38,712 bases of DNA, from sequence record SRR31156797_5131; one strand, written 5' to 3'. Below, piece after piece: positions 1,887 through 37,689 of the stretch. Position 1 is the first letter of the stretch, and each line of letters opens with the position of its first letter. The position numbers and the translations under genes are program-made. Under the pieces are notes generated by a model that worked only from the letters and a program-made list of their open reading frames with translations, did not search any database and was not told where the DNA came from.

Positions 1887-2024
1887 TGCATGTAGCGTTT
1901 CGCGGGTATGGCGTCGTGCCGCCGAATCCGCAGGTTTGTTGTTTAGTGTTCAATCGTTAAATTCTCACTTCCGTATCCAGCCGAGCCGAACCGCGGCATG
2001 CGCTATGACCCGCTGTTAGGTGTA
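1887..2024 (-). repeat. attC-like recombination site (138 bp imperfect inverted repeat) between two co-oriented genes
   Basis: The minus strand begins TACACCTAAC (RYYYAAC) and ends GCTACATGCA (degenerate GTTRRRY). Arms 1902-1922 and 1993-2013 form a 20-bp stem on the + strand with two G-T wobbles and bulged G2007 and T1914. It is a GC-rich island in AT-rich DNA. Confidence 0.8.
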
Positions 2025-2977: not shown

Positions 2978-3024
2978 TAAAAGTGCACAATACTGACTTA
3001 TAAGGTATGTATTGTGCACTTTTA
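2978..3024. repeat. Perfect 16-bp inverted repeat with 15-nt spacer next to the attI-like site
   Basis: TAAAAGTGCACAATAC (2978-2993) / GTATTGTGCACTTTTA (3009-3024). Confidence 0.85.
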
Positions 3025-4095: not shown

Positions 4096-4965
4096 ATGGA
4101 CGATAATATAGAAAATATATATCACCAGGCTGTAGCGTTACAGTCCTTGCCTTTCGAGATCATTACTTTCGAACAGCTATACGAACGTCATCAGCAAAAT
4201 TTTAACCTCTTGTTTGATTGTCACCGCATTCAGTTTAATGCCTTGTTCATTATTACATCAGGAAAAAGTGTGCACAGTATCGATTGCCAAAAGTTCAACA
4301 TGCAGGCAGGTACAATTATTCCTATGGTAAAGGGTCAGGTGCATCATTTCGAAAAGGAGCTGAATGTAGAGGGAGTTATCATCACATTTCCCGATGAATT
4401 TATTGCCGATAACATTTCGGAGGGGGACCTGATTCATTTTCTACATCTTTACCATTCGCCAATACTGCAGGTAGATAAAAATAACCTGACACTTTTAAAA
4501 CCTTTTGTAGATTTGCTGTTCAGCGAGCAGGAATCGGAAAGTACCTACCTGAAGAGTGATTTGATAAGATCCACATTTCTATCCTTAATCATACAGATAA
4601 AACGCTTAATTCCACATCAAAACATTGCGACTAACAGTGATCGTTTTGTTGATTTTGTAAGATTTAAGAGACTCATAAAGGGGCTATTTACAAAAACTCA
4701 TAACGCCAAAGAATATGCTGCCGAATTAGGTGTTAGCTACAAGTACCTTAATTCTATTAGCAAAGAAAATGGCAATAAAACAGCCAAAGCCTTTATCGAT
4801 AGCTGGTTGGTTTTAGAAATCAAGAGGAATATTGCCGAGAAAAAAACGTCGGTAAAGGAAATTGCTTACAATACCGGATTCGAAGAACCTACCAATATGA
4901 TCCGCTTTTTTAAGAAACATACCGGATTTACCCCAAAAGAATATGCCGAAGAGCTAAATAAATAG
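4096..4965 (+). CDS. AraC family transcriptional regulator
   Basis: N-terminal cupin-like domain (HRIQF..GQVHHF) and C-terminal double HTH (YAAELGVSYKYLN; VKEIAYNTGFEEPTNMIRFFKKHTGFTPKEY). Confidence 0.95.
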   Translation: MDDNIENIYHQAVALQSLPFEIITFEQLYERHQQNFNLLFDCHRIQFNALFIITSGKSVHSIDCQKFNMQAGTIIPMVKGQVHHFEKELNVEGVIITFPDEFIADNISEGDLIHFLHLYHSPILQVDKNNLTLLKPFVDLLFSEQESESTYLKSDLIRSTFLSLIIQIKRLIPHQNIATNSDRFVDFVRFKRLIKGLFTKTHNAKEYAAELGVSYKYLNSISKENGNKTAKAFIDSWLVLEIKRNIAEKKTSVKEIAYNTGFEEPTNMIRFFKKHTGFTPKEYAEELNK

Positions 4966-9503: not shown

Positions 9504-10154
9504 ATGACAAAAAGTTTAAAAGAACAATTGGAAAAAACTCATTCTGGTTTTACATCGTCTGCTCCCAAAGAGGTATTGGATGTTATTAATGATGGAATTA
9601 AGACTTTAGCCGAAAGTGATTTAATAAAGAATGTTATTCAAAAAGGTCAAAAGAGCCCCGACTTCACTCTTATTAATGCAGTTGGTGAAAAGATTAATCT
9701 CTACGATGAGTTGAAAAAGGGACGTGTAATTTTAACATGGTACAGAGGTGGTTGGTGCCCATACTGTAATTTGCAATTGCAGTATATGCAACAAAGCTTA
9801 TCTGTATTTAAAGAGTTGGGTGCTAATCTTATTGCTATTACTGCAGAAAAACCTGATGCTTCGCTTAGCACAAAAGAGAAAAACGAACTGGATTTTGAGG
9901 TTCTTTCAGACATTGATGGTTCAGTAAGCAAGTCGTTTGGATTGACATTCAAATTAACAGATGAGGTAAGTGATCTTTATAAAAACACTTTTGGTTTAGA
10001 TTTAGTAGAATTTAACGATAATAACTCCGACGAATTACCTATACCGGCCACTTATATAATTAATCAGGATGCTACAGTTGAGTATGCATATATTAACGCA
10101 GACTACACCCAAAGAGCAGAGCCTGTTGATATAATTAAAGAGCTAAAAAAATAA
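9504..10154 (+). CDS. Peroxiredoxin-like AhpC/TSA family protein
   Basis: Start set to ATG 9504; PDFTL, WYRGGWCPYCNLQL, LPIPATYII, DYTQRAEP. Confidence 0.92.
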   Translation: MTKSLKEQLEKTHSGFTSSAPKEVLDVINDGIKTLAESDLIKNVIQKGQKSPDFTLINAVGEKINLYDELKKGRVILTWYRGGWCPYCNLQLQYMQQSLSVFKELGANLIAITAEKPDASLSTKEKNELDFEVLSDIDGSVSKSFGLTFKLTDEVSDLYKNTFGLDLVEFNDNNSDELPIPATYIINQDATVEYAYINADYTQRAEPVDIIKELKK

Positions 10155-10157
10155 GAT

Positions 10158-11258
10158 ATGGCAAAAAAAATATTCGAACCAACAACAATAGGTGATTTAG
10201 AACTAAAGAATCGATTGTGGCGTTCTGCTACATGGTTGGGTATGGCTGACGATGAGGGTTTTGTTACTGATGCAGTTAAGGAGCAATACAAAAGACTTTC
10301 GGAAGGTGGAGTAGGGAATGTTATTGTCGAGTTTACCAATATTTTAAAGGAGGAAAAGACATATCCTGGAATACTTAGCATTAGTACTGATAAACATATC
10401 GACGGTCTAAAAGAGTTAACCAATATTATTCATGCTAATAATGCAAATGCATTTATTCAGATTGGATATGGAGGTTCTACAACCAGCTTATCAACTTATG
10501 ATCGTGTAGTGTGGGGACCATCTGCGGTGAAAAACCCAACCAACCAATTTGTTCCTAAAGAGATGACAGAAGAGGAGATAAAAACAGTGGTAGATGGCAT
10601 GGGACAAGCAGCTCTTAGAGCCAAAAAAGCTGGTTTTGATGGGGTGCAGATTCATGCAGCTCATGGTTATTTGTTTTCTCAGTTTTTGTCACCCTTTTTT
10701 AATCGTAGAAAGGATGAATATGGTGGATCTATTGAAAACAGATCGAAGATTATTTTGGAGTCTTTGGAGAGTATGAAAGCTCAGGCTGGTAAGGATTTTC
10801 CGGTCTTGATAAAAATGCATTGTGAAGATGAATGGGGTGAACATGGCTTAAGACTTGAAGAGAGTTTGTGGCTGGCGAAAGAGTTAGAAAAAAGAGGAAT
10901 TGATGGCATAGAGTTTAGTGGTGGTAATATTGATCCGAACACTGGAAATTCTGCATTGAAGCCTCGTTTGTTAAAACCAGAAAAGCAGTCGTACTACAAG
11001 AAGCAGGTTAGCCAGATCGCAGAAGAATTGAAAGTTCCGGTTATTTTGGTTGGTGGAAACAGGAACATGGGAATCATGAATGAGATCCTCAACAATAGTA
11101 ATATCTCCTACTTTTCGCTTTCACGAATCTTACACTCCGAGCCCGATTTACCTGAAAAATGGATGGAGAATCCAGATCAACGCCCCAGATGTGTTTCGTG
11201 TAACAATTGTTGGGCAGAGGGAGGTAACATTTGTATAATAGATAGAAAGAAGAATTAA
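10158..11258 (+). CDS. NADH:flavin oxidoreductase (old yellow enzyme family)
   Basis: LKNRLWRSAT, AGFDGVQIHAAHGYLFSQFLSP.FNRR.DEYGGS.ENR, C-terminal CVSCNNC cluster. Confidence 0.95.
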   Translation: MAKKIFEPTTIGDLELKNRLWRSATWLGMADDEGFVTDAVKEQYKRLSEGGVGNVIVEFTNILKEEKTYPGILSISTDKHIDGLKELTNIIHANNANAFIQIGYGGSTTSLSTYDRVVWGPSAVKNPTNQFVPKEMTEEEIKTVVDGMGQAALRAKKAGFDGVQIHAAHGYLFSQFLSPFFNRRKDEYGGSIENRSKIILESLESMKAQAGKDFPVLIKMHCEDEWGEHGLRLEESLWLAKELEKRGIDGIEFSGGNIDPNTGNSALKPRLLKPEKQSYYKKQVSQIAEELKVPVILVGGNRNMGIMNEILNNSNISYFSLSRILHSEPDLPEKWMENPDQRPRCVSCNNCWAEGGNICIIDRKKN

Positions 11259-11259
11259 T

Positions 11260-11547
11260 ATGATTGAAGTAGTATCAAAAATGTATGCCAAAGATGGTAG
11301 AGTAGAGGAGCTTATCTCAACATTTAAAGAGATGATCGAACCTACAAAGAAAGAGAAAGGATATTTGTTGTATGAAATGTATCAGGATCAGAAGAATCTT
11401 TCTGTTTTGATTGTCCTTGAACAATGGGAAACACAGGAGGATTTTGATAATCATTGTATTTCTGATCACTTTAATCGAATCGTGCCCCAAATGCTTGAAT
11501 GTATGGAAAGGGCATCCGAAGTGAATATTTGCAATAGAGTGGCTTAA
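11260..11547 (+). CDS. Putative quinol monooxygenase (ABM domain)
   Basis: 95 aa; TKKEKG...YEMYQD, EQWETQEDFDNH..SDHF. Confidence 0.9.
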   Translation: MIEVVSKMYAKDGRVEELISTFKEMIEPTKKEKGYLLYEMYQDQKNLSVLIVLEQWETQEDFDNHCISDHFNRIVPQMLECMERASEVNICNRVA

Positions 11548-11549
11548 GA

Positions 11550-11594
11550 TATCGGGAAGCGATTATTATTCTGTGATCGCTTCCCGATAGTTTC
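11550..11594 (+). terminator. Rho-independent terminator ending the redox operon
   Basis: TATCGGGAAGCGAT (11550-11563) / ATCGCTTCCCGATA (11576-11589), followed by GTTTT. Confidence 0.85.
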
Positions 11595-11665
11595 CTTACT
11601 ATTATTCGTTACATTTTCTAAAAAAAATCTTATTTTCATATCATGTTGAATTAAAATTATAAAAT

Positions 11666-11815
11666 ATGATTTTAGGCGTATCAGGATGGCTTAGTGGAAA
11701 ACTAGGTTGGGATGTAACAATTATAAGAGTTGCATTTGTTGTAGGAGTGTTGTGTTTTGGTGTTGGATTAGGACTGTACTTGATTTTGTGGTTGGTGAAA
11801 ATGTTTTCTAATTAA
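11666..11815 (+). CDS. Minimal PspC-domain membrane protein (49 aa; not in ORF track)
   Basis: MILGVSGWLSGKLGWDVTIIRVAFVVGVLCFGVGLGLYLILWLVKMFSN matches the PspC pattern GV..GL....G.D...R..F......G.....Y..LW; AT-rich leader. Confidence 0.85.
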   Translation: MILGVSGWLSGKLGWDVTIIRVAFVVGVLCFGVGLGLYLILWLVKMFSN

Positions 11816-11996
11816 ATGGTTTTAAAATTTAAGAATAGTTGTTGTTAGGTGTAACTGGTTGGTTGTGAAATAGCGGTAGGAACGTAAAGGTTTTGTAATT
11901 TATAATGAGTCTAGGAGTTGAATGGTGAGTGTTTTTGCAAATGATAATTAATTTTATTAGTACGTTGAAAATTAAGCCACCCTAAGTATCATCGAT

Positions 11997-14989: not shown

Positions 14990-16078
14990 TTAAATTCTCT
15001 TGTTGCAAATTGCTTGCAATGGGCAATTATCACATAAAGGTTTCTTCTGACAAAAAGCTTTGGCATGCTCTACTACTAAAGCATGATTTAAATTGTATGT
15101 TTGGGTATCCTTAGGAATTACCTCTTCCATTAACTTGCGAAAATCTTCATATTTTTCTGGAACCTCAATTCCTACACGGTAAAAAATTCTTCGTGTATAG
15201 GCGTCAATCACAAAGAATGGTTTTTCAAGAGCATATACCAAAATGCTATCGGCTGTTTCACCACCAACACCATTAATACTCAGTAATTCCTGTCTAAGTA
15301 AATCGCCATCCTGTTTTTTAGCTTCGCTGATATTGTAATCATACTTTTTAAACCATTTGCTTAGTGATTTTAGTTTTAAAGCTTTCTGGTTGTGGTAGCC
15401 ACTTGGACGTATTATTTCTGCTAATTCTTCGGGAACAGTTATTTCAACGAATTCAGGTGTTAACTTTCCATTGAAATTAGACAAAGCCTTTTCAACATTT
15501 TTCCAATTGGTGTTTTGGGTGAGAATGGCACCTACCATCATTTCAAAATCACTATCTGCAGGCCACCAATTCAACTTTCCGTAGTGTGCTTTTAAAATTT
15601 CGAATGTATGATTGATCAATTCCAAATTCAGTAATTGCTTTTTCAACTCCAAACCATAGGCATAGCCAACCAATTTTTTATTGGCACCAATTACTCTGTG
15701 GCAGGGTACAATTATAGGGATAGGATTTTTGTTGTTCGCCATTCCAATTGCCCTTGCGGCTTTAGGATTACCGATAGCGACTGCAATATCCTTATAGCTT
15801 CTCAATTCACCGTATGGAATATTATCTAGTTCGGTCCAAACTTTACGTTGGAAATCGGTTCCTTTTGGATTTAATTTTAGATTGAAACGAGTTCTTTTGC
15901 CTTCGAGATATTCAAGCAATTGAGCTTTAGCCTCTACAAACTGATTTTCTGATTTTACCCAGTTCTCGTCAATAAATATCTCTTTGCTCTTGTTGTCAAC
16001 CAGAAGTTGACTGATTCCATTTTTGTCTCCAATCAAGATGATTTTCCCGATTGGAGTCTCAAAGCTTTCGTAATTCAT
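14990..16078 (-). CDS. Fusion: O6-alkylguanine-DNA alkyltransferase (Ogt) + HhH-GPD DNA glycosylase with Fe-S loop
   Basis: N-half GTDFQRKVW..IPYG..SY, NPIPIIVPCHRVIG. C-half WWP....FEMMVGAILTQNT, IRPSGY..QKA, INGVGGETADSIL, VIDAY, C-x6-C-x2-C-x5-C. Confidence 0.92.
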   Translation of the reverse strand: MNYESFETPIGKIILIGDKNGISQLLVDNKSKEIFIDENWVKSENQFVEAKAQLLEYLEGKRTRFNLKLNPKGTDFQRKVWTELDNIPYGELRSYKDIAVAIGNPKAARAIGMANNKNPIPIIVPCHRVIGANKKLVGYAYGLELKKQLLNLELINHTFEILKAHYGKLNWWPADSDFEMMVGAILTQNTNWKNVEKALSNFNGKLTPEFVEITVPEELAEIIRPSGYHNQKALKLKSLSKWFKKYDYNISEAKKQDGDLLRQELLSINGVGGETADSILVYALEKPFFVIDAYTRRIFYRVGIEVPEKYEDFRKLMEEVIPKDTQTYNLNHALVVEHAKAFCQKKPLCDNCPLQAICNKRI

Positions 16079-16084
16079 ATCTGT

Positions 16085-16756
16085 TTAATCTTTCAGAAGA
16101 TCAACAATTTTGCTGATGCTGTTTGTAGTGTAGTTTGGAGTTTTTTCCCAGGGATCGAAACTGTTCTCTTCGTTTCGTTGTATCCAAATGGATTGCAATC
16201 CAGAATTCATTGCGCCCAGTATATCAAAGGAATTGCTGGAAATCAGATAGGTATTCTCCTTTTTGGATGCGGTAGTTTCAATAAAATGCTCATACGCCAA
16301 TGGATCGGGTTTGAAAGATTGAATCTCTTCAAGACTAACCACATGGTCGAACAAGTGAATGATATCGGCGTAGTACAGCAGACTATGAATGTCTTTTTTT
16401 GTGCCATTGGAAAAGGCAGAGATTTTATGTCCCTTACTCTTTAAAGTCTGCAATCCTTCAATTACATCCGGAAATACGGGTAATTCCTTATATTCCCAAA
16501 GTAGTTGCTGCCTTTGACTTGTAGTTAGTTTTACTTTGTATTGCAGACAGCAAAAAATTAGAGCTTGTTTTGTGCAGACAGAGAAATCTACGTAATCTTT
16601 CATTAATCCTCTTCGAAAAGAATATTCCAATTGCTTATTTCTCCAACTATTGGCGAATGATTTTGCTTTTTCTCCAATCAAGTTTTCAAGCGATTCCTGA
16701 ATTCCAGAGGTGTTGATTAAAGTGCCGTAAATGTCAAATGCTAATGAATAGGTCAT
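16085..16756 (-). CDS. Haloacid dehalogenase type II (HAD superfamily)
   Basis: Start set to ATG 16756 (ATGA overlap with ada stop); AFDIYGTL, WRNKQLEY, SNG, KPDP..Y, SSNSFDILGA. Confidence 0.9.
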   Translation of the reverse strand: MTYSLAFDIYGTLINTSGIQESLENLIGEKAKSFANSWRNKQLEYSFRRGLMKDYVDFSVCTKQALIFCCLQYKVKLTTSQRQQLLWEYKELPVFPDVIEGLQTLKSKGHKISAFSNGTKKDIHSLLYYADIIHLFDHVVSLEEIQSFKPDPLAYEHFIETTASKKENTYLISSNSFDILGAMNSGLQSIWIQRNEENSFDPWEKTPNYTTNSISKIVDLLKD

Positions 16757-17811
16757 GCTTGTTTGTGTTTTAATTCGTGATCGAGTAGCCATTGTTTTCT
16801 TTGCAGTCCACCGCCATATCCGGTAAGTTTTCCATCTTTTCCAATCACTCGGTGACAAGGAACAATAATGGAAACTCTATTGTGACCGTTAGCATTTGCC
16901 ATGGCTCTAACTGCTGTTTCCTGATTGATTCGCAAAGCCATTTGTTGATAGGTAGTGGTAGTGCCAAATGGTATTTTTTGCAATTCTTCCCATACCGTGT
17001 GTTGAAATGGGCTGCCTGGTAAATCCAAATTGAGTTGAAACGAGTTTCGGTTCCCTTCGAAATATTCTTTCAATTGCTTTTTACATGCTTTAGAATGCTC
17101 ATTTTCTCCCTGAAGTATTACCGCATTTAGTTTCTTTTGAAGATCTCGAAATTCTGTTTCCAGCATTTTTCTATCGGTAAATTCTACCAAACAGATTCCT
17201 TTATCGGTGGCACATATAAACATGGGTCCCAATGGACTTGTGATTCTGCTAATTAGAATGACTGACTTATCCTTACTCTCTTTTGGAGAATCGCCAACCA
17301 ATACTTTAAAAGTATAGCCAAAACCACTTAAGGAATTGTACCCTGAGTTGAAAGCGGAATCGGTTACCTGTTTTCCTTTTTTGAGTTCCTGAAATGCAGA
17401 GTTAATTCGTAGCATTCTTTGATAAGCCTGAAAGGTCATGTCGTGGTGCTTTTTAAACCATCGTCTGATTTTTTCGGGTTGCAAACCGTTTTGTTTCAAT
17501 TGATAATCACTTACTTTTTCGAATACATTCTGATTGACCAGTTCTATGGCTTTTTTAATATCATCAGGTGGTTCGTAGGCATTATTGGTGGGCTTACAGA
17601 TTTTACAAGGTCTGAAACCATTGTGAAGTGCATCTTTTGATTGCGTGTAAAATTCAATGTTTTCAAACTTGGGCGTTCTTGCACGGCAGGTAGGAATACA
17701 GAATATGCCAGTGGTTTTCACAGCCAGGAAAAAGGTACCAATGTACTGGCTGTTTTTTTCCTTTACCGCTCCATAATATTCCTCTCTTTTTTGCTGATCT
17801 GAAATAAGCAT
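16753..17811 (-). CDS. ada: Bifunctional transcriptional activator/DNA repair protein Ada
   Basis: Zn domain VKTTGIFCIPTC...GFRPCKIC, AraC-type HTH (GYNSLSGF), methyltransferase PCHRV. Confidence 0.95.
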   Translation of the reverse strand: MLISDQQKREEYYGAVKEKNSQYIGTFFLAVKTTGIFCIPTCRARTPKFENIEFYTQSKDALHNGFRPCKICKPTNNAYEPPDDIKKAIELVNQNVFEKVSDYQLKQNGLQPEKIRRWFKKHHDMTFQAYQRMLRINSAFQELKKGKQVTDSAFNSGYNSLSGFGYTFKVLVGDSPKESKDKSVILISRITSPLGPMFICATDKGICLVEFTDRKMLETEFRDLQKKLNAVILQGENEHSKACKKQLKEYFEGNRNSFQLNLDLPGSPFQHTVWEELQKIPFGTTTTYQQMALRINQETAVRAMANANGHNRVSIIVPCHRVIGKDGKLTGYGGGLQRKQWLLDHELKHKQA

Positions 17812-37180: not shown

Positions 37181-37240
37181 GCTTCGCAGTTAGCAATATT
37201 CCAAATCAAATTTAGATCATCTGCAGAAATGCTAAGCCTT

Positions 37241-37481
37241 TAAATTCTTAAAAATTGGAAATTCATCTCTTTCAAAGCGAAGTAAATACTTCCCGAGAGT
37301 AGGAATATCAAAGAATAATGTAGATAAATCCGTTCAGAATAGAAGTAAATCGTTTCCCGGACTTGGAAAATCAAAGAATAATGAAGGTAAATCAATTCAG
37401 AATGCAAATAAATCGTTTCAGAATGGAAATAAATCGCTTCAGAATACAAATAAATCCTTTCCGACACCTGGTAAATTTTAA
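37241..37481. repeat. Degenerate tandem repeat array, 21-bp period with a 63-bp higher-order duplication
   Basis: TAAAT starts at 37241, 37283, 37325, 37346, 37388, 37409, 37430, 37451 and 37472 (all spaced by multiples of 21). Best units read TCAGAATnnAAATAAATCnnT. Confidence 0.85.
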
Positions 37482-37689
37482 AAAAAGAAGGGGTAAAATG
37501 ATCAATTTTCAATTCTGAAAATGGGACCTATAGTAAGCTTAATTAGGTCTTAAAAGTACAATTAAACAAAAGAGAAAGCAGATGAATAAAGCAATTGAGT
37601 TTTTTATTTCGAATCGTGTTATGTGATGCAAAAAGTGCATTATTCTTAGGCATTTTGATGTTGATCATACTACTTAAATTTTACTAAAA

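Follow-up and report, generated by a model that had tools for sequence, protein, structure and literature searches.

Near the start of SRR31156797_5131, a stretch of 38,712 nucleotides (nt) that was analysed as a whole and is called the window here, a palindromic element of 138 nt (positions 1887–2024) lies between two genes of the − strand. Is it a recombination site of the kind found in integrons, and if so, to which system does it belong? The initial annotation, made from the letters alone, had read it as an attC-like site and as a single-stranded DNA substrate for a recombinase other than classical IntI. The first part of this reading is supported by the match to a model of related sites, by a complement at the start of the neighbouring cassette, and by the covariation and strand bias of homologous sites. 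We consider it probable that the element is the attC equivalent that closes the cassette of the gene P0001, in an orphan array of two cassettes (P0001, then AbiU) belonging to an integron-like system of flavobacteria.

At the level of sequence, BLAST found no homologue of the element: plasmids gave one chance match of 30 bases, and five related genomes gave short chance matches, mostly in the loop. The family was therefore reached via structure. We aligned the bottom strands of 22 sites from outside the window, which come from Salegentibacter, Winogradskyella, Aquimarina and two metagenome contigs, and built the covariance model R1 from this alignment. When both strands of the whole 38.7-kb window were scanned with filters off, the best match was 1887–2024 on the + strand, over the full length of the model (model positions 1–138), with 20.7 bits; the next match scored 10.9 bits. 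The pattern of the nearest subtype, CGTTTYGCGG...CCGCTGTT, is present in 4 of 401 genomes and a control pattern in none. A scan that required a site's own two boxes to be complementary returned no sites, but this criterion is unsuited to arrays.

The structure of the family is supported by covariation. RNAalifold gives 22 pairs for the 22 training sites, and 13 of these pairs show compensatory changes on both sides. The cells of the alignment that should pair do so in 95.2% of cases, as against 76.3% in shuffles, none of which (0/500) reached the observed value; sliding the register by one or two columns lowers the figure to about 35%. The initial annotation had proposed exactly this check on homologous sites. 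Conservation of sequence is concentrated in the AAC/GTT boxes, and the AAC-G of the outer box, read on the bottom strand, is invariant in all training sites (22/22). Two pairs of the alignment are always G-T (22/22 sites), namely 11/138 in the R box and 29/123 in the stem.

In the window, the two genes lie on the − strand, and the + strand is the folding ('bottom') strand. In a DNA fold of that strand, G1902–T1907 pair with A2008–C2013, followed by the bulged G2007; A1908–G1913 pair with C2001–T2006; and after a bulged T1914, C1915–C1922 pair with G1993–G2000. The stem thus has its 5′ arm at 1902–1922, including the wobble bases G1910 and G1916, and its 3′ arm at 1993–2013, in which G2007 stands seven bases before the inner box. 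The stem has only two non-Watson-Crick pairs on the + strand, G1910-T2004 and G1916-T1999, and both become C-A mismatches on the − strand. Every base of the stem that had been claimed for the element, including its two bulges and two G-T wobbles, is reproduced by this fold. The central loop (1923–1992) is variable; it shows no conservation in the site alignments (A2, A4), and the homologues in runs X3 and X16 have indels at 1923–1927.

The two boxes frame this stem. On the gene strand, the outer (R′) box at 1890–1896 reads GCTACAT instead of the GTTRRRY of classical attC sites, with the predicted crossover at 1895|1896, and the inner (R″) box at 2015–2021 reads ACCTAAC (2021→2015), which fits the classical RYYYAAC and overlaps the last codons of P0001. 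The R1 alignment pairs T1893-A2018, A1894-T2017, G1895-T2016, C1896-G2015 and G1897-T2014, the same register as that of the core-box pairing, partly via G-T, that the initial annotation had described. Both the fold and the R1 alignment place a spacer of 5 nt (GTTTC, 1897–1901) on the R′ side and a single nucleotide (2014) on the other. Two of the wobbles fall on the invariant G-T pairs of the family (G1916-T1999 on 29/123, G1897-T2014 on 11/138), and G1910-T2004 corresponds to pair 23/128, which is G-T in 11 of the 22 sites. The − strand folds worse than the + strand (−18.6 vs −20.1 kcal/mol), so the strand bias claimed for the element goes in the expected direction. Scans with Rfam and with tRNA/tmRNA models gave no match to the element.

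The boundaries of the cassette provide the second line of evidence. P0001 (2003–2905, − strand) encodes 300 amino acids (aa). Just upstream of its start codon, the ten bases at 2920–2929 (− strand; GTTAGGTGTA on the gene strand) reproduce the reverse complement of 2015–2024 without a mismatch (10/10 bases), and the crossover is predicted at 2928|2929. Such a complement is the signature of an integron-type cassette, in which the first bases of the circular cassette complete the outer box of its own site. The 10-mer has three exact copies in the window, where 1.37 matches would be expected at up to one mismatch. The third copy (11844–11853, + strand) directly follows a frame for a small hydrophobic or membrane protein, has no R1 match nearby and is probably a chance occurrence.

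A permutation rule across the arrays of the family points to the same exchange point. The outer box of a site agrees with the inner box of the following site at five or more of the seven variable places in 27 of 28 consecutive junctions (8/8 in array L054, 7/7 in L055, 11/11 in L056 and 1/2 in L007), in a tally that was read by eye from three recombinase-linked arrays and from L007, which has no recombinase in the stretch examined. This rule places the exchange next to the AAC/GTT triplet, as in integrons.

The second gene of the array, P0002 (106–1845, − strand, 579 aa), encodes an abortive-infection protein of the AbiU/AIPR type (Pfam AIPR, 1.5e-46; PADLOC AbiU, 2.8e-117), and its homologues are flanked by sites of the same kind at the loci L001, L002, L004, L010 and L013. 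The bases beyond the outer box of the window element (..GCAATT) form the opening of the AbiU cassette at all of these loci, where the outer box reads GTTRYAT or GTTAGGT in place of GCTACAT. At L002, L004, L010 and L013 (metagenome or genome loci), the GTT box upstream of AbiU complements the ..AAC box downstream of the same gene. The closest AbiU match, with 87% identity, comes from an Aquimarina sp. (L007, on contig 4). Both genes of the window array are co-directional, with one clear site between them, and their G+C content is 0.25–0.33, compared with about 0.35–0.42 further along the window.

The same comparison of sites shows which features of the element are traits of the family. In the modelled pairs of the 22 training sites, 101 cells are G-T and only 5 are A-C, and the bottom strand is the more stable one in 36 of 42 distinct full-length sites, among them the window (by 1.5 kcal/mol), so that the strand bias expected of homologues is found as well. 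The consensus has a one-sided spacer of 3 nt (unpaired columns 13–15 on the outer-box side, without a counterpart opposite), and a member of the family would be expected to leave 3–5 nt unpaired on the R′ side and 0–1 on the R″ side; the window has 5 and 1. The spacer asymmetry that had been called unusual is therefore real, but it is a rule of the family.

The bulges behave differently. Nine other sites carry an additional G or T in the column of G2007, seven bases ahead of the inner GTT (8 of the 9 in the Salegentibacter array, plus L013:9827). T1914 is found just 5′ of a conserved C-G/G-T/T-A triple; two Winogradskyella sites have an extra T at the same place, and a subfamily of 171-nt sites in Aquimarina has one on the opposite arm beside the same triple (6 sites). 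Each bulge thus has precedents in other subfamilies. Only the window combines both, though, and the nearest subtype in the genome sample has neither, so the pair of bulges on opposite arms, in contrast to the one-sided spacer and the strand-specific G-T wobbles, is not a conserved feature. In substance, the inference drawn in the initial annotation was correct, even if conservation does not extend to the opposite bulges from which it started.

We then looked at the distribution of the sites in 151 genomes of Flavobacteriaceae (the family of genome G003), with thresholds of E <= 0.001 for R1 and E <= 1e-60 for a profile of the recombinase described below. R1 sites were found in 135 genomes and the recombinase in 105; 103 genomes have both, 32 only sites, two (G017 and G019) only the recombinase and 14 neither, counts that are not independent because the sampled genomes are related. 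Among the matches listed (the best 150 of about 1,777 site matches), at least 16 genomes beyond G002–G005, for example G146, G125, G123 and G012, have co-directional sites up to 70 kb downstream of the recombinase on the same contig. The most repeated case has at least 21 scored site matches in one genome. Orphan arrays also exist in relatives: L013 lies 1.5 Mb from the recombinase in G002.

The enzyme at the head of these arrays was examined within 10–20 kb of its gene in G002–G005. In Aquimarina, Salegentibacter and Winogradskyella, the gene for an Xer-like tyrosine recombinase of 375–420 aa is directly followed by a co-directional row of small genes separated by the palindromic sites; at a fourth locus (L057, uncultured Aquimarina) only one site was found. 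The four array-linked enzymes are 34–57% identical to each other and share an N-terminal extension of about 105 aa. Directly after the recombinase stop codon, L054–L057 have a short hairpin and then GTT, which together make up an attI-like site.

These recombinases are not integron integrases of the known type. We searched the five genomes that hold AbiU relatives with the integron integrase family TIGR02249, and nothing scored above the cut-off; the best match in each was a tyrosine recombinase frame of 313–423 aa (381–423 aa in G002–G005) that matched in two pieces. For P0003, the Aquimarina enzyme of 377 aa, the score of 229.3 bits exceeds the cut-off of 220 for the XerA-type family NF040815, whereas TIGR02249, matched in two stretches, gives 194.5 bits and stays below its cut-off of 265. 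The nearest solved relatives of P0003 are archaeal XerA structures (4a8e, E 6.8e-42; 5hxy), ahead of IntI4. Residues 115–278 of P0003 align with 13–177 of IntI4 and residues 301–375 with 243–317, so that the 65 IntI4 residues 178–242 have just 22 counterparts. That stretch of IntI4 includes K209, Y210, W219, P232, H240 and H241, which are described as contacting the two extrahelical bases (PMC3053210). The proposal of a recombinase other than classical IntI therefore agrees with the arrays of relatives, which adjoin an Xer-like enzyme without the IntI insertion; for the window itself, such an enzyme would be the candidate by analogy.

Natural breakpoints were looked for in four public runs compared as contigs; runs X4–X15, X17 and X18 share small portions of the window's words and contribute nothing to what follows. 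In the probable source run, one contig covers the whole stretch and ends at window position 1. In run X2, an aquaculture metagenome, one contig matches 81–2929 with 18 differences and continues with 84 letters that do not match the window, and a second contig matches from 2924 onward and is preceded by 1,004 unmatched letters. The difference between this close strain and the window thus falls precisely on the crossover predicted upstream of P0001, as an extra inserted cassette would produce. In run X3, a microbial-mat metagenome, a contig of 1,213 nt matches only 1896–2017, at about 92% identity, and both of its flanks are unlike the window. Homology thus sets in precisely where the cassette boundary is predicted. 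Over this match there are 10 differences and 2 gaps; both gaps lie at 1923–1927 and no indel falls on 1914 or 2007, so that this close homologue retains both asymmetries in arm length. In front of 1896 the X3 contig reads ..ATAA, which gives this copy an intact AAC. Both the complement at the 5′ end of the cassette and these natural breakpoints, 1896 in X3 and 2924–2929 in X2, thus follow the classical cassette layout.

Several observations weigh against an attC-like site in a working array. The fold energy of the whole element is at chance level (z −0.66; 53 of 200 shuffles fold as well or better), and the strand bias of 1.5 kcal/mol is small. The R1 score is low for the family, in which training-like sites reach 70–120 bits and only the 171-nt Aquimarina subfamily scores similarly (18–25 bits), and the E-value of the match, 0.0064, is rough, as all E-values of R1 are. 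Twenty further sites repeat the excess of G-T over A-C cells (78 vs 9), but their alignment was fitted to R1 and is hence biased towards the model structure. The nearest subtype conserves neither bulge, and the dependence among the sampled genomes noted above counts in this direction too. At the outer box, G1895 turns the invariant AAC into AGC, which gives GCT instead of GTT on the gene strand. Finally, neither a recombinase nor a remnant of one is found in the 38.7-kb window (the best tblastn match with the Aquimarina recombinase has E 2.7). Since the fold energy is not significant, the case for a real feature must rest on other evidence, and this exists: the match to the family model, the exact 10-nt complement at the cassette start and the location at the 3′ end of a gene, with the folding strand opposite to the gene, are all above chance.

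The last two of these adverse points lead to the most serious alternative, that the element truly belongs to the family but no longer recombines and is by now an intergenic hairpin at most. The base replaced by G1895 is an A in 22/22 training sites, and the close strain in X2 has the same triplet, as far as can be told from the differences listed. The two boxes of the AbiU cassette no longer match each other, and no site was found after AbiU. Orphan arrays are common, given that 32 of the 135 site-bearing genomes lack a recombinase at the threshold used. However, a change in one partner at the second or third place of GTT is reported to leave recombination near wild type in class 1 integrons (PMC2811028), and the element keeps its inner box, stem and conserved wobble intact, as well as the 10-nt complement. 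The precise difference of the X2 strain at the upstream junction also points to recent activity there. We therefore regard a dead site as possible, though with a chance clearly below even. With no recombinase in the window and a GCT outer triplet, the element is an orphan site in a two-cassette remnant, of uncertain activity and possibly weakened.

It is also conceivable that the element is an ordinary integron attC site in a CALIN (a cluster of attC sites lacking an integrase), served by a classical IntI elsewhere in the genome. The likeness to integrons is indeed extensive. As in integrons, an imperfect palindrome stands at the 3′ end of a single-gene cassette that looks promoterless, with inverse boxes ..YAAC and GTT..., a G|TT crossover and first cassette bases that complement the cassette's own inner box. 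The length of 132–138 nt lies within the range of attC sites. Structure is kept more than sequence, with covariation and one better-folding strand, and the cargo includes an anti-phage defence gene, here AbiU, as has been reported for chromosomal integrons (bioRxiv 10.1101/2024.07.02.601686).

The differences are of another kind. In classical attC sites, the spacers between R box and stem are roughly symmetric, whereas here the spacer is one-sided and an invariant G-T wobble (22/22) takes the place of a fixed extrahelical pair. The bulges of the window element lie on opposite arms (T1914 on the 5′ arm, G2007 on the 3′ arm), while both extrahelical bases of the classical folded attC are on the same side, and moving one of them across abolished excision by IntI1 (PMC3053210). 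The outer box departs from GTTRRRY in the window, and other members of the family have GTT. No IntI with its specific insertion was found in the window or, above the TIGR02249 cut-off, in the five related genomes, a search that covered these sequences and not the rest of the source genome. In those genomes, and in the further ones with linked sites, the arrays start beside the Xer-like enzyme, which differs from IntI in its missing insertion and its N-terminal extension, lies upstream of its cassettes and co-directional with them, and is followed by an attI-like site made of a short hairpin and GTT right after its stop codon. Bacteroidetes also seem to be nearly free of integrons; the IntegronFinder 2.0 report lists for them only In0 elements and a single complete integron, in Salinibacter (PMC9024848). 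A classical attC site is thus an improbable reading of the element.

Among published systems, the nearest to the proposed flavobacterial one is rAID-1 of Bacteroidales, a comparison made by description only. The name stands for recombinase-associated acquired interbacterial defence. Ross et al. 2019 (bioRxiv 10.1101/471110) describe these clusters with a 5′ XerD-like recombinase, co-directional genes of low G+C content and, between the genes, repeats that they call "reminiscent of" integrons. The same source defines rAID-1 by a recombinase at least 44% identical to the B. fragilis reference, followed by at least two low-G+C genes in the same direction with repetitive sequences between them, and restricts close homologues of the enzyme (>50% identity) to Bacteroidales. 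The window has two co-directional genes of low G+C with one clear site between them, and no recombinase. Both systems belong to the same phylum; the cargo of rAID-1 consists of interbacterial immunity genes, and that of the window of AbiU and an orphan, with no recognisable immunity genes. A literature search of incomplete coverage found no description of a flavobacterial system of this kind.

Among Xer/dif modules (XerC/D, archaeal XerA, pdif of Acinetobacter), archaeal XerA provides the structures closest to the recombinase of the relatives. Sites of the dif type are short and double-stranded, about 28 bp long. The sites of the present family, by contrast, are folded palindromes of 60–200 nt with covarying stems in arrays of one-gene cassettes.

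The high copy number of the sites might suggest a palindromic repeat of the repetitive extragenic palindrome (REP) type, or a miniature inverted-repeat transposable element (MITE), spread by other means such as a Y1/HUH transposase, and other short palindromes of the window do recur in the source run. A repeat of this kind is very unlikely here, since in the arrays each of the co-oriented genes has a single site at its 3′ end, the complementarity of the boxes tracks the cassette rather than the repeat, the sites co-occur and co-locate with one family of tyrosine recombinases, and BLAST finds no copy of the element in the five related genomes. Least plausible of all is a transcription terminator, RNA-stabilising hairpin or small RNA unrelated to recombination, for although a G+C-rich hairpin just past a stop codon in an A+T-rich gap between co-directional genes would suit it, there is no T-run after the stem on the gene strand, a terminator scan lists nothing there, the transcript would be the worse-folding strand without an Rfam match, and neither the conservation in the AAC/GTT boxes nor the cassette-permutation rule has an RNA explanation.

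The element is, then, a new member of a widespread integron-like family that is served in relatives by a non-IntI recombinase; it is somewhat atypical and may be weakened. By analogy to integrons, the + (bottom) strand would fold in the cell into a hairpin in which a one-sided spacer lies between a short duplex of the R boxes and a long stem containing the conserved G-T wobble. In the bottom-strand AAC, cleavage by a tyrosine recombinase would fall after the second A and before the C, which is G|TT on the gene strand, and cassettes would move as units from TT... to ...G. The enzyme would be of the type found at the array head in relatives, Xer/XerA-like with an N-terminal extension of ~105 aa and without the IntI insertion, in which classical integrases have most of their residues for gripping the extrahelical bases. 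Recombination as a single strand, as proposed in the initial annotation, the cleavage chemistry and the acting enzyme are predicted on the integron model, and this copy may or may not still be active.

We lean slightly towards a wider interpretation, in which a second kind of integron, built independently of the first, is present in Flavobacteriaceae and perhaps, with rAID-1 included, throughout Bacteroidota. It would combine a XerA-like enzyme with folded single-stranded sites whose strand is chosen via the invariant G-T wobble and the one-sided spacer, not via two extrahelical bases, and the opposite bulges of the window would reflect tolerance of bulge position. Integrons are defined by IntI with its special domain, whereas a site family with integron logic is now found in 135/151 Flavobacteriaceae and linked to a simpler recombinase. 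If this interpretation is correct, cassette capture through folded strands is not tied to the IntI domain, and a new enzyme-site pair is at hand for studies of strand selection. It would also explain the trade of defence genes such as AbiU among marine flavobacteria, and perhaps among gut Bacteroidales via rAID-1. The stakes for the single locus described here are smaller, as it is an orphan remnant with two cassettes.

Some further features bear on the surroundings of the array. P0001 has one predicted N-terminal membrane helix; Pfam, NCBIfam and PADLOC assign it to no family, a search of 401 genomes gave no homologue, and the only leads are weak and TPR-like. Upstream of its start junction, 2930–2985 (− strand) may hold an attI-like or decayed short site, with a small hairpin (2938–2962) before the GTT and an R″-like ACCCAAC at 2979–2985. 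This hairpin, only a few bases ahead of the GTT at 2929, is similar to the attI-like ones found in relatives after the stop codon of the recombinase; the R1 score of 2939–2978 is weak (7.8 bits, E 3.7). Upstream of 2929 the window has neither a co-directional Xer-like recombinase gene, from which an array of the family would be expected to start, nor a remnant of one, and the next 1.1 kb are without a long frame. At the other end, an R″-like AAATAAC with a cut-off site after AbiU, at about 1–74, was considered and found to be unsupported, as the R1 scan of 1–300 gives nothing.

The window is A+T-rich and its gene complement is Bacteroidota-like. Its backbone is absent from the five related genomes, and the 401 genomes give only three short matches of 68–71% identity. 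No AbiU relative was found in the viral contigs searched. On a 274-kb metagenome contig (L005), the AbiU homologue is split into two frames (10001–10885 and 10990–11730), probably by a frameshift, and no site of the flavobacterial family is evident beside it. In the Aquimarina sp. with the closest AbiU homologue, three R1 sites lie 4–6 kb upstream of that gene (L007, 4031–5762). They form an orphan array, as the recombinase-linked array of the same genome is on contig 2 and not on contig 4.

An AraC-type regulator gene of the window (4096–4965) lies on the other strand, with no site adjoining. Part of it is 71% identical over 185 nt to a gene of the locus L059 (G031:C22), where R1 sites at 436–573 (43.1 bits) and 2363–2496 (46.5 bits) flank the regulator-like gene, which makes it a cassette there.

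The other palindromes of the window are of separate kinds. A perfect 15-bp hairpin at 2981–3023 belongs to a stretch of ~40 nt, copies of which, with 2–4 differences, stand on four or more further contigs of the probable source run and also on contigs of runs X2, X3 and X16; this looks like a distinct family of short palindromic repeats, either REP-like or a mobile terminator. Two short hairpin segments (1–30 and 72–115) are common to other contigs in all four compared runs. As the source contig ends at position 1, the window seems to start at a repeat where assemblies break. Farther along, 37296–37463 hold five in-register copies of a 42-nt unit (family D1), mostly 21 nt apart, near a 90-aa frame at 37240–37512. 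At 14990–17811, two adjacent genes encode O6-methylguanine methyltransferase domains, one together with an HhH-GPD glycosylase and the other with Ada zinc-binding and AraC HTH domains; this is an alkylation repair cluster of the adaptive-response type and is unrelated to the attC-like site.

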